A stretch of 3,471 bases of DNA from a virus (IMGVR_UViG_2663763280_000007:1-3471); one strand, 5' to 3'; counted from the stretch's first letter, positions 1 to 3,471 are shown. The notes: generated by a model not told the origin, from the sequence alone. Numbers and translations: made by a program.

Positions 1-324
1 GTGTTCGCACCGACCTGGCTTGGGTTATCGTTTTACGATAGCCGCACCACGTCGTTGTTGCATCCTGCTCGCCAGATCCAGCTTCCCAGCCTGCAACGCG
101 GTGAAGGTGAAGCGATGCTTACCGCCCTCACCCATCTTAGCCGTTCGCCGCTGGAGCAGAATATCTCCATTAGTCTGATTCAACTTAAATTGCAGGCCGG
201 GCGGAAGCTGATGCAGGCAGAGACCACCCGACTTAACACTGTGCTGGATTACATTGACGCGGTGACGGCAACAGATACCAGCACAGCGCCGGATGTCATC
301 TGGCCTGAACTGCCGGAGGCGTAG
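1..324 (+). CDS. Tail fiber assembly protein, alternative cassette copy; C-terminal 107 codons only, 5' end truncated by the window edge
   Basis: Open frame runs from the window start to a TAG stop at 322-324. Its C-terminus (LDYIDAVTATDTSTAPDVIWPELPEA) is paralogous to that of the minus-strand Tfa (LDYLDALELVDTSSVLDIEWPTPPAVQAR), sharing the pattern GR-L ... LDY-DA ... DTS ... D--WP--P. Convergent orientation against the other tfa gene fits the second cassette of an invertible fiber segment. The antisense ORF 25..333 has no comparable motif. Confidence 0.7.
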   Translation: MFAPTWLGLSFYDSRTTSLLHPARQIQLPSLQRGEGEAMLTALTHLSRSPLEQNISISLIQLKLQAGRKLMQAETTRLNTVLDYIDAVTATDTSTAPDVIWPELPEA

Positions 325-748
325 GCCATTCAATATCTAGCACACTGGAGGTATCAACCAGCTCCAGTGCGTCCAGGTAATCCAGCCACAAATTATATTG
401 CGCCAGTTCCTCGTCTTTCAGACGACCAATAGCGGCTTTACCGGGCCATTGTTTACTGTTCATGTATTCGTTGGCCTGGTTAATTAGTAGCTGTCTTTCT
501 GATTCAGTAATTTCAATAAGTTCTTCATGCGTGGGTGGAGGAATATCTGCCCACGCAGGCAGCCCATCTTCTCCGGCAATACGGATTTTTCCTTGTGGCG
601 GTTCAGCCATAAACTCACTGATAATATTTTGATTTACTTCCTTAGCGTCTGATAAATCCCATCCCTCTGATTTATATTTATCAATCATATCCACAGGGAA
701 AAAAGCATTATGCCTTGCGCTATAAACATATTCATTCATATAAATCAC
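296..748 (-). CDS. Tail fiber assembly protein (Tfa chaperone), 150 aa as drawn
   Basis: Lies immediately downstream of the tail fiber gene on the same strand, with the fiber stop at 760-762. The C-terminal WP-x-x-P motif and size are typical of Tfa/Mu U-type chaperones. The codon at 746-748 is GTG, not ATG; an in-frame ATG at 737-739 is preceded by AGGGTG (SD-like, about 5 nt spacing) and may be the true start, giving 147 aa. Stop is TGA at 296-298. Confidence 0.8.
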   Translation of the reverse strand: MIYMNEYVYSARHNAFFPVDMIDKYKSEGWDLSDAKEVNQNIISEFMAEPPQGKIRIAGEDGLPAWADIPPPTHEELIEITESERQLLINQANEYMNSKQWPGKAAIGRLKDEELAQYNLWLDYLDALELVDTSSVLDIEWPTPPAVQAR

Positions 749-759
749 CCTGAATAAAA

Positions 760-1422
760 TTACTCACCAACAGCCCACCAACTGTAATTCATCGATACCG
801 TGTCGCTGGTTGATGACGTTCTGTAAGCAGAATTAAAGCCGGTTAACGTTGGGCCTTCTGCAGTCATCACGAACCCTCGCCCAGCGCCTAAAGGCGCACC
901 GCCATCACCAGAATGAGTAAGCATGGCGCAGTCCGCTTTTTTGGGGAAAGGGATGCTGAATGTAATTCTCATTGTTTGCGTCGATAATGTCGGCGTAACC
1001 GCACCACGACCATATTGCAGGATTTTCCCGTTGGGTAATTTCATCCATCCATCACCACTGGCAAAAGAGGCCATGTCCGGTATCTGATTTTCCCCTGTCC
1101 CCACATCCCGTTTTGCCGCTTCTCCCAAACCAAGGTTTTCGAGAGCCGTTTTCACCGTGCCATCCGATTTGATATCACCAAACGGATTCTTGCGGCTTAA
1201 CAGCAGAGCACGAAGCGCGGTAAGCAACTGGTCATGCCGCCCCTTCTCCAGGCTGGCACCGGAGGTCTCCACAACGCTGCAAAGCTCCTCCTGCAACATG
1301 TCAAAGTAGTCATCATCCAGATCGGTGGCAGGCGTACCAGTCTGGGGGTTACCACGGGTAAAACCGTTCTTACCCGCGCCGAACTTATCCTTCTGCGCGG
1401 TTTTCGTATCTATACGATGCAT
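760..1422 (-). CDS. Short side tail fiber protein, 220 aa: about 92-aa N-terminal constant anchor fused at an LENLGLGE junction to an about 120-aa receptor-binding tip
   Basis: ATG at 1420-1422 is preceded by GGAG about 6 nt upstream, lying inside the end of the upstream gene. Residues 93-101 (ALENLGLGE) are encoded by the crossover-like palindrome at 1120-1145. The downstream motif ([19 protein letters not shown] ... [13 protein letters not shown]) resembles the distal tip regions I recall from phage side tail fibers. Position between a gp48-like gene and a tfa gene matches the canonical order. Confidence 0.85.
1120..1145. other. Putative crossover site for a Din-family serine invertase (hix/gix/cix/pix-like), 26 bp
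   Basis: Sequence TTCTCCCAAACC-AA-GGTTTTCGAGAG: two 12-bp half-sites in inverted orientation around a central AA dinucleotide (left TTCTCCCAAACC, reverse complement of right CTCTCGAAAACC; 9 of 12 match). This closely resembles the hixL/gix sites as I recall them (TTCTTGAAAACCAAGGTTTTTGATAA-like). It sits in frame within the tail fiber gene at the conserved LENLGLGE junction. Confidence 0.75.
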
Positions 1423-1425
1423 GGA

Positions 1426-2010
1426 TTACTCCGGATATTTAAAAATTACGTAGGTATGCGACGGGCAGAGTTTGTTAAGCACACACTCGACAACGGTGTC
1501 GCCCCAGATACTCAGTGCGGAATCACAGGGATCGCCACATGTCATCCAGGTGGTGTTGGTGGCGGCTGGCATGTTGACCTGCCAGTAATACCGCCATTCC
1601 GGCGCATTCACCGCGTCAGTACAGGCCGATGAGCAGGTGAACGTGCTTTTGTCGTATCGCGTGATGGTGGCGTCTGGTCTGCCCAGGGCAGCAAGCTGTG
1701 CAAGGTAAAAATCCTCATTGATGCCGCCCGCCAGGTTAACCTTCGCATCCAGTCGTTGCTGACGCTGGCGAAGGGTCTGTGTCCCTGCGGGAATACATTC
1801 ATCCGGCAGGCCGCACAGACGCTCCCAGCGATTTATCAGTTCGGTGGTGGTGCGCGGATCCAGCTCCCGCATCAGGGCATCCGCACGCTGATGAACACGG
1901 GTTAATGACGGTGCCGCACCGGCAATCGCCGGATCGCTGGCTGACCACGCCGGACCGGGCGGCAACAGTGCCGATAACAGGCGGATGTAATCATCGTTTG
2001 TCACGTCCAT
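1426..2010 (-). CDS. ymfQ: Mu gp48-like / YmfQ-family (DUF2313) phage tail protein, 194 aa; probable baseplate component analogous to P2 gpI
   Basis: ATG at 2008-2010 overlaps the upstream J-like gene by 10 bp (J stop TGA at 2001-2003). The N-terminus [24 protein letters not shown] and the 194-aa length match what I recall of enterobacterial YmfQ-type proteins. Position between the J-like and tail fiber genes is as in Mu (gp47-gp48-S). Stop TAA at 1426-1428, 3 nt before the fiber ATG. Confidence 0.85.
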
Positions 2011-3059
2011 GAAATCGTCCCCAGTACCGCCAGTTCGTTTTTCGCAATGGAGATATTGTCCACCGGTGCAAGCAACTGATGGCTGTATTCCCCGTTCGCA
2101 CCGGAAATCGCTTCACTGATACGTGACACCTTCAGTTCTCCCTGCGGATAACCATCACGCAGCAGGAACGAACGCAACTCGGCGGTGATGGCAGCCCGTA
2201 TTTCCGGTGTGTCCGGCGTCACGCGGATATGAAAATCCACTTTATGCGCCACCGGCCTGAATACATACAAATCAGAGCCTGCCACCGGGGCCAGTGGCTC
2301 AATGTGTTGTCTTGCCGCCGTTTCCGTTGATTCTTCCGGAATGGGATTAATCAGGTCACTGCTGGCAATCATCACACCGACAGTCCCCGTTCCCATCCAG
2401 TGGCGGTATGTCCATGCACGGGTAATGCCGGGCACTTCTTTAGCCCAGACAACATAGTCCCCGTCAGCCCCGCCCTGAGGCGTCCAGTAATACCGCTCAA
2501 TGACGCGGGCGCGCCACGTTTCCAGCTCTTCAGTATCAAATCCACCTGTCAGAGTGTCTGCCACGCCGGAAGACGGCAGACCATTCACCGGCGTGACCAG
2601 GATTAATGCCGTACCGTCGTCAGCGTTACCGACCGCTCCTGCACTTGAGCAGGCGATCGGCACGCGCAGGACACCACCGGAGCTGGTTGCATCGGCAGTT
2701 GCCGTGTACTGAACCAGATCATCGCGCTGAATAACACTCCCGGCGGTCACCTTCAGGCCATCGCTGACACCTTCCCAGCGCATATACCCGCTGGCAGCCG
2801 TGGCCCCCTTGCGCGGACACCGTTTCATCGCAGCATGTCGCGCCAGCCAGGACTCATCGCACAGGTCAGGCAGCATGTTCATTGCCAGATAATCGATGTA
2901 ACCGTAAACCGTATGCAGCGCCGCCGCATACACCTTTGCCCGCACGTCTTCATCCATGCGCCGGAGCGTGTCGCTGACGTCCAGCCTGGCGAATAAATCG
3001 TTACGGAGCATACTGATATTTTCTGCCAGCGTCGGGCGCTGAAATTCACTGTCCGCCAT
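2001..3059 (-). CDS. Baseplate J-like protein (Mu gp47 / P2 gpJ family), 352 aa
   Basis: Long, GC-rich ORF with ATG at 3057-3059, overlapping the stop of the upstream gp46-like gene by 14 bp. Size and position (after the gp46-like gene, before the gp48-like gene) fit the baseplate wedge J family. Plus-strand ORFs 2400..2606 and 2500..2712 lie wholly inside it and are taken as antisense shadows. Confidence 0.85.
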
Positions 3060-3471
3060 GCGTTATCGCACTCCACAGATCATCAAAAGAAATCATTACC
3101 GGTCCGTCACGACGCCAGAGAGTGATACTGTTACCCAGTTCATTAATCCCGGTGCGGCGGATATCCAGATCAATACGGGACACCACACCGTCATCAATCA
3201 TCCATTGCAGGCATTCGCGGATATACCCCCTTACCGTCTGCACCAGCTGATTGGTCAGTTTGCCGCGCTGAAGCAGCCACAGCCGGGAGCCGTAACGGTC
3301 ATTCTGTACCGCAGGCCAGGTATCCCCCCACCATCCCATCGGGACGTCGGCATTGTCATCAGGCTCCGCCCGCCGCCAGGTGAACAGGGAAATCACCACG
3401 GCGCGGGTCAGCGGATCCAGCGGTGCGCTGGCGCAGGTGCGTTTACCGTTCACCGTCAGCCACAGTTCCAT
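3046..3471 (-). CDS. Mu gp46-like small baseplate protein (Phage_GP46 family; functional analogue of P2 gpW), 141 aa
   Basis: Contains GWWGD ... GSRLW-L motifs that I associate with the GP46 family, and 141 aa is typical for it. ATG at 3469-3471 is the last codon of the window, so the upstream context and RBS cannot be seen and a longer N-terminus cannot be excluded. Stop TGA at 3046-3048. Confidence 0.75.
   Translation of the reverse strand: MELWLTVNGKRTCASAPLDPLTRAVVISLFTWRRAEPDDNADVPMGWWGDTWPAVQNDRYGSRLWLLQRGKLTNQLVQTVRGYIRECLQWMIDDGVVSRIDLDIRRTGINELGNSITLWRRDGPVMISFDDLWSAITHGGQ

Follow-up and report, generated by a model that had tools for sequence, protein, structure and literature searches.

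The e14 P segment of Escherichia coli K-12 is a 1,797-bp stretch bounded by TTGGTTTGGGAGAAGG repeats that carries stfP, tfaP, tfaE, and stfE and is inverted by PinE, PinQ, and PinR (PMC12529663). It has been found in both orientations (PMC12529663), and a 2025 study reported that its inversion blocks adsorption of phage T2 (PMC12529663). The G segment of phage Mu (S/U and U'/S', with gin) and the Hin/Cin/Pin family likewise combine tail-to-tail pairs of tip and chaperone genes with crossover sites in inverted orientation and a neighboring gene for a serine invertase. The Mu segment measures 3 kb and has 34-bp repeats, and its U and U' genes are separated by a gap of 28 nt, with no overlap. A third group consists of frozen remnants: in CPS-53 (tfaS/yfdK) and in phage SfIV (gp22/gp21), an intact tail fiber assembly gene (tfa) converges on a 5'-truncated second copy (tfa'), and the annotation of the stretches that we examined shows no invertase gene beside the tfa pair.

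We analyzed a 3,471-nt stretch of DNA of viral origin (IMGVR_UViG_2663763280_000007:1-3471; hereafter, the window) for which a pair of overlapping, convergent tfa genes had been predicted. The long open reading frames of the window are all encoded on the minus strand and together make up the terminal part of a Mu-type tail operon, and the gp46-J-YmfQ block is syntenic with that of e14-like prophages (which carry pinE), SfIV, and Mu. Judged from its sequence, the window very probably derives from an e14/SfIV-like prophage that has a Pin-type invertible fiber segment, and covers the distal end of its tail operon. The late operon would run along the minus strand through gp46, J, YmfQ, the 220-aa fiber, and Tfa, with the fiber gene split by a Pin-type site and everything to the left of that site contained in an invertible segment of ~1.9 kb. 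An intact segment would hold two tail-to-tail cassettes (tip plus tfa and tfa' plus tip') with pin adjoining, and its inversion would swap the tip and chaperone that are joined to the constant fiber head and the late promoter, which would change receptor specificity. The minus-strand tfa is the chaperone gene of the putative expressed cassette, and the tfa' remnant would be that of the silent alternative. The coordinates of the features are collected in the table.

Table. Features of the window, with positions counted from its first base.
Feature	Position	Strand	Basis or remark
gp46 (Mu-type baseplate)	3046-3471	minus	Pfam PF07409
Baseplate J/gp47	2001-3059	minus	Pfam PF04865
YmfQ/gp48	1426-2010	minus	Pfam PF10076
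Tail fiber, 220 aa, Gp53-like C-terminal domain	760-1422	minus	Pfam PF21882, residues 128-219
Constant N-terminal part of the fiber, ~97 codons, outside the invertible segment	1133-1422	minus	Identical in the L004 and L014 fibers
Variable C-terminal part of the fiber (Gp53-like_C), inside the invertible segment	760-1132	minus	PF21882
Hin/Gin/Cin/Pin-type crossover site, TTCTCCCAAACC-AA-GGTTTTCGAGAG	1120-1145		20-nt repeat arm; within the fiber gene, encoding ENLGLGE
Intact tfa, 147 aa	296-739	minus	Pfam Caudo_TAP, PHROG 188
Imperfect palindrome around the overlap, 18 nt, 89% complementary	243-386 (arms 243-260 and 369-386)		Repeat search
Antiparallel overlap of the tfa 3' ends, 29 bp	296-324	both	Sequence; stops conserved in relatives
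tfaE-type 3' remnant, 52 codons + TAG	166-324	plus	Caudo_TAP, PHROGs, identity to L004
ypdC/tfa' junction	165/166		Identity to L004 starts at 166
ypdC fragment, codons 98-152	1-165	plus	100% identity to ypdC

The minus-strand protein gave a significant, full-length match to the Tfa family: in its 150-aa form, it matched Caudo_TAP (PF02413) over residues 13-145 (profile positions 3-130 of 131; E = 2.6e-30) and PHROG 188 (E = 5e-62). The real start of the gene is likely the ATG at 739, which is preceded by the Shine-Dalgarno-like sequence AGGGTGA and yields a protein of 147 aa, the form called or annotated for relatives. The ORF end at 748 in the original prediction corresponds to the longer, 150-aa form that begins with a GTG at 748. 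A search of PDB sequences with the 147-aa Tfa yielded no match. In the fiber protein, PHROG tail fiber families matched residues 1-103, so that the PHROG matches divide the protein at about residue 103. The GC content drops to 35-41% at 500-800, a region that comprises the 5' half of tfa and the tfa/fiber junction, compared to 55-63% in the baseplate genes; this drop fits a different origin of the cassette.

Window positions 166-3471 aligned to the intact prophage of L004, part of a complete 5.2-Mb chromosome, without a single mismatch in 3,306 nt. There, the plus-strand gene encodes a full 200-aa TfaE, after which come a Collar-domain fiber tip lacking its own N-terminus and a 184-aa invertase of the resolvase family, and the genes of the segment are flanked by a 20-nt inverted repeat (L004 10285-10304 and 12168-12187). 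When L004 was compared with another natural isolate, L014, the flanks were collinear at 99.99-100% identity and a 1,903-bp segment was inverted at 99.9% identity, with the breakpoints inside the 20-nt inverted repeat and the outer half-sites remaining with the flanks. Orientations thus do differ among intact relatives, and the breakpoints fall at the repeat found in the window at 1120-1145. The two orientations give either a 220-aa, Gp53-type fiber or a 256-aa, Collar-type fiber, which share their first ~100 residues and diverge after ENLGLGE. The tip that is not in use remains beside pin as an orphan ORF, which in L014 is the Gp53-type part and measures 137 aa.

Of the 16 bases of the e14 P-segment repeat quoted above, 15 are found in the crossover site of the window. 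This site is the only one in the window, where zero matches would be expected by chance, and its partner would lie beyond base 1. No serine invertase gene was detected in the window; such a gene adjoins the segment in L001, L002, L004, and L014. The reading of the convergent genes as two alternative fiber/chaperone cassettes therefore stands for the element family, in which both orientations occur and L004 holds the full second cassette, but fails for the window itself, from which the second cassette is absent: one tfa is complete there, and the other is reduced to 52 codons. We infer from the identical relatives only that the segment may switch in the source strain.

Among the described systems, the P segment of K-12 e14 (stfP-tfaP/tfaE-stfE, pinE) shares with this locus the gene order after ymfQ, the type of crossover repeat, the convergent tfa pair, and an identical 29-bp overlap sequence, and the tfa' found here is of the tfaE type. 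DNA identity to K-12 e14 is ~88% over 166-452. The segment is slightly longer here (1.9 kb vs. 1,797 bp), and the tip and chaperone alleles differ, a Gp53-like fiber of 220 aa and a Tfa of 147 aa standing in place of the 209-aa StfP and 137-aa TfaP of e14. Unlike e14, which is a remnant, relatives of the window retain a complete upstream tail module; the window, for its part, keeps only 52 codons on the tfaE side, and these are joined to ypdC. Mu follows the same plan as this locus (PMC4406740), including a constant fiber N-terminus outside the segment, with tips and chaperones of other alleles. Taken at face value, the window most closely matches the frozen remnants in CPS-53 and SfIV, which have the same 29-bp overlap. 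The truncation in those elements was caused by gtr/yodE-side sequence or an insertion sequence (IS), whereas in the window it is formed by chromosomal ypdC joined in frame, and the joint is doubtful. The architecture is that of the textbook Mu G/e14 P host-range switch, which is already known, annotated, and experimentally studied.

Three further observations concern the behavior of the segment in other genomes. Two prophages that are otherwise collinear carry a second, adjacent segment of 2,060 bp (L004 12180-14239 vs. L016 11497-13556), containing pin and a gene for a GIY-YIG-domain protein, in opposite orientations and at 100% identity. The crossover here is between the pin-proximal site and a third site, only one half of which is good (L004 ~14226-14251, TTTTATGAAAAC-TT-GATATCATATAA), which suggests use of a quasi-site or a multi-inversion system. 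In one draft assembly (L008/L021; GCA_001911015.1, LRKK01000146.1, positions 1-5935), constant baseplate genes lie on both sides of the segment, so that the 220-aa and the 256-aa fibers both appear complete; a palindromic assembly of this kind is expected if the culture held both orientations. Finally, L017 (AP027899.1, 9570-20444) carries the segment and pin on a different tail module, with Phage_Wedge1, a 399-aa baseplate J protein, and Sheath_initiator. Its homology to the window is limited to 166-1138 and 1119-1197, indicating that the cassette moves between phage types.

We then considered the overlap of the two tfa genes. Reading the sequence confirmed that the minus-strand ORF (296-748) ends with a TGA at 296-298 and that the plus-strand frame, which is open from base 1 for 107 codons, ends with a TAG at 322-324, giving the predicted 29-bp overlap. 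Positions 296-324 encode IWPELPEA and a stop on the plus strand and TPPAVQAR and a stop on the minus strand, and the proteins end in PDVIWPELPEA and LDIEWPTPPAVQAR, respectively. The motif D-[VI]-x-W-P-x-x-P that had been noted at both Tfa ends is present, with TGGCCT at 301-306 and its complement, AGGCCA, at 323-328. The predicted paralogy of the two genes was borne out for their C-terminal domains, both of which match Pfam Caudo_TAP: by pairwise BLASTP, the domains encoded in the window were 41% identical over 37 aa (E = 2e-7), and the minus-strand Tfa was 35% identical over 72 aa to a full-length, 200-aa relative of the plus-strand gene (E = 3e-10).

Both stops and the overlap were kept in every relative that we examined, and the overlap varied at a single position among 12 aligned copies, by a substitution that is synonymous for the minus-strand gene. 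The 221 nt of junction DNA around the overlap occurred in 2,034 of 5,426 complete E. coli genomes, as well as in phages of Escherichia, Klebsiella, Salmonella, and Citrobacter. Since the stops are conserved in relatives and the junction is present in so many genomes, the overlap is inherited and not the result of chance. On the simplest reading, it would represent a lost intergenic spacer, with the minus-strand frame extended by the eight codons for TPPAVQAR, which read antisense across the I-W-P-E-L codons of the other gene. The overlap is already annotated twice in E. coli K-12 and in thousands of other records. In K-12, these are e14 tfaP/tfaE (L024 4518-4546) and the CPS-53 pair of the tfaS pseudogene and yfdK (L025 5078-5106); the other copies include gp22/gp21 of phage SfIV (L027 4131-4159) and the e14-like prophages of E. 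coli 81EVA and MEI1-1023.

The original prediction held that the antiparallel overlap leaves no room for a terminator. This does not follow, since nothing prevents a terminator from being located within the opposite gene. A scan for intrinsic terminators in and near the overlap found two sites, neither of them convincing, compared to 1.2 expected from shuffled sequences, and thus no enrichment; the sole candidate close to the tfa stop is weak and lies immediately after it, on the minus strand at 278-292. Antisense read-through into the silent cassette, which had been proposed on the same grounds, would thus be plausible.

We also considered whether the overlap and the palindrome around it (243-386) might be a selected regulatory device, such as a bidirectional attenuator, a hairpin that affects RNA stability, or a way to silence the off cassette by antisense. 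The near-invariance of the overlap (one substitution in 12 copies), the inverted repeat, the weak terminator-like site at 278-292, and the predicted folding of the 240-380 region (z scores of -2.4 and -2.9) are all in keeping with such a role. Short-range folding, however, was not significant (z scores of -1.3 to -1.9), the number of terminator-like sites did not exceed that in the shuffled sequences, and no Rfam family was found in the window. The 18-nt inverted repeat itself arises because the convergent paralogs both encode L-D-Y-[IL]-D-A, making the palindrome an expected by-product of convergent genes with the same motif, and Mu accomplishes the same task with a 28-nt gap instead of an overlap. 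We consider a selected regulatory device unlikely. Similarly improbable is the broader proposal that the overlap and the LDY[IL]DA palindrome constitute a functional element of the switch, acting either in attenuation or stabilization of late transcripts or as a preferred recombination joint. If this were true, the end of whichever cassette is on would be subject to attenuation or stabilization in either orientation, or half-cassettes would be swapped between unrelated phages.

A role of the overlap as a recombination joint draws on few cases, namely a homology boundary near window position 337 in SfIV and a tfa remnant downstream of tfa in HK97. Mosaicism of tail fiber genes is a long-standing view. 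Homology between SfIV and the window ends ~13 nt past the overlap (at ~337) and resumes ~55 nt before the crossover site. This gap, together with the fall in GC content at 500-800, suggests exchange of the whole tip-plus-chaperone unit at conserved joints, and we infer that the overlap may also serve as one such joint for cassette exchange between phages. In HK97 and HK106, the match extends ~52 nt past the tfa' stop (window positions 324-376), which suggests that these phages keep a short relic of a convergent tfa downstream of their own tfa gene.

The plus-strand frame proved to be of composite origin. Matches to tail fiber assembly families in Pfam and PHROGs were confined to residues 55/56-106 of its product, with residues 56-106 aligning to positions 82-131 of the Caudo_TAP profile (E = 4.5e-10), and the corresponding bases, 166-324, were identical to those encoding the C-terminus of the 200-aa TfaE of L004. 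Residues 1-55 matched no Tfa family in either Pfam or PHROGs. Instead, bases 1-165 were 100% identical to ypdC, which encodes an AraC-family regulator, in thousands of E. coli genomes. In one of these (L003), 291 nt of ypdC precede the match, which places base 1 of the window at the first base of codon 98; the ypdC reading frame is the plus frame and is joined in frame to tfa', in agreement with the YpdC sequences that we retrieved. Accordingly, the GTG at base 1 that resembles a start codon encodes Val-98 of YpdC and lies two bases from the end of the contig. When the whole window was compared by megablast to the 5,426 complete E. coli genomes, matches always started at 166. The 107-aa chimeric ORF was not on record by exact look-up, and none of 538 protein homology hits to it covered both halves, the best coverage being 71% (TfaE).

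These results bear on two other ways of reading the frame. The first, raised as a possible refutation in the original prediction, is that the ORF is nothing more than an antisense shadow cast by the minus-strand gene and its neighborhood. Such a shadow could draw on just the 29 nt of the plus frame that lie opposite the minus-strand tfa, whereas 166-324 is mostly outside that gene, is identical to the TfaE C-terminus, and has significant family matches in Pfam and PHROGs; for this part of the frame the shadow is refuted, and as an account of the whole we regard it as having practically no chance of being correct. The second is the literal one, that positions 1-324 are the 3' part of a complete tfa' whose remainder lies just upstream. 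The C-terminal 52 aa are genuine Tfa, identical prophages do carry a complete second cassette, and, should the joint be artefactual, this reading would hold for the organism but still not for the given sequence. Against it, only 166-324 is Tfa, and the rest is ypdC, at full identity and in the ypdC frame. Extension upstream, which had been suggested as a way to recover the full tfa' and its partner fiber exon, is cut short by the contig end 2 nt past the window, and in a second assembly (L007) it yields ypdC and ypdB instead. For the given sequence the literal reading is refuted, and we consider it very improbable. The original prediction thus holds for 166-748 and fails for 1-165.

Whether the ypdC/tfa' joint exists in a genome is a separate matter. 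The window corresponds, base for base, to the reverse complement of positions 7952-11422 of a draft contig (L009; GCA_000945835.1, contig CCCB01000122.1), which ends 2 nt beyond the window. On the other side, beyond gp46, this contig continues into a 3' fragment of ruvB, two short unrelated pieces, and a eutQ'/eutP' piece before phage sequence resumes. The pieces are 150-530 nt long and are arranged head to tail, with N and NNN at two of the joints and 36 Ns in the locus. No E. coli genome holds 80% of this 1.46-kb patchwork stretch (L009 6500-7960), which in each genome is distributed over at least three (median, four) separate places. The ypdC/tfa' junction was similarly elusive: no place covering 80% of window positions 1-330 was found in the 5,426 complete E. 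coli genomes, scans that tolerated both versions of the breakpoint gave zero hits in GTDB representative genomes and zero in JGI metagenomes, and the junction was not found in protein clusters.

Window positions 191-1873 are matched at 100% identity by the second assembly, L007 (GCA_001373215.1), in which ypdC likewise adjoins tfa'. The breakpoint of L007 is displaced by ~24 nt from that of L009, in that ypdC-type bases continue to the equivalent of window position 188, followed by NN and then by tfa' in the same register (~189/190). L007 extends for 1.1 kb into the 5' part of ypdC and into ypdB, giving a 204-aa open frame. Elsewhere in this assembly, Ns occur at another non-syntenic joint, between der and lnt (2804-2812). 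By eye, the phage sequence of L007 is also cut inside ymfQ (L007 9540-9550; window positions 1874-1883), where it is joined to the 3' end of a tRNA-Gln gene at the short microhomology GGCAT-CCG, while the phage continues in L009 and L004.

The same register with a different breakpoint, the Ns at the transition, and the patchwork surroundings favor an artefact, and we think that the ypdC/tfa' joint was probably produced by scaffolding or gap filling at the end of a patchwork draft contig. What speaks most for a real junction is that the joint recurs in two assemblies. L009 and L007 share the adjacency, the orientation, and the frame, which would be hard to obtain from random chimeras and leaves room for a genuine junction molecule, L007 runs on into the 5' part of ypdC and ypdB with its frame open, and invertase-less tfa' remnants are common, as exemplified by CPS-53 tfaS and the IS-truncated gp22 of SfIV. 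A real rearrangement, for example a large inversion or translocation with illegitimate end joining, would have removed the 5' part of tfa', the alternative fiber tip, and pin, and would leave an in-frame pseudogene composed of YpdC(1-152) and the 52 aa of Tfa', with the cassette locked in one orientation. However, the difference between the two breakpoints (165/166 vs. ~189/190, with NN) at an unchanged register resembles a consensus or gap-filling effect, what lies on the other side of the phage piece differs between L007 and L009 (tRNA-Gln vs. continuing phage), and L009 is demonstrably chimeric elsewhere. Moreover, the junction was absent from the complete genomes and the other collections searched, and the identical prophage of L004 adjoins yagQRST(pao)-like genes, as judged by Pfam content only, a locus that lies far from ypdC on the K-12 map. 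We consider a real rearrangement possible, but short of probable. As to specific routes to the joint, neither of its sides resembled, by eye, the AAACC-NN-GGTTT core of a Pin quasi-site, and no IS sequence was found at the joint. We conclude that both the L009 and the L007 assemblies should be treated as chimeric.

As a discovery the locus is of little value, and its practical value lies in the caution that it gives about chimeric contig ends. The second tfa gene of the window is the product of a gene caller at the end of a chimeric contig, half host regulator and half phage chaperone, and support at the level of reads would be needed before the ypdC/tfa' frame is listed as a new gene or fusion protein. 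Should the joint be artefactual, the complete switch would be present in the real genome, as it is in the 100%-identical prophage of L004; if the joint is real, the switch would be broken and frozen with the Gp53-type tip expressed. The family to which the segment belongs is biologically relevant, as illustrated by the reported block of T2 adsorption on e14 inversion (PMC12529663).
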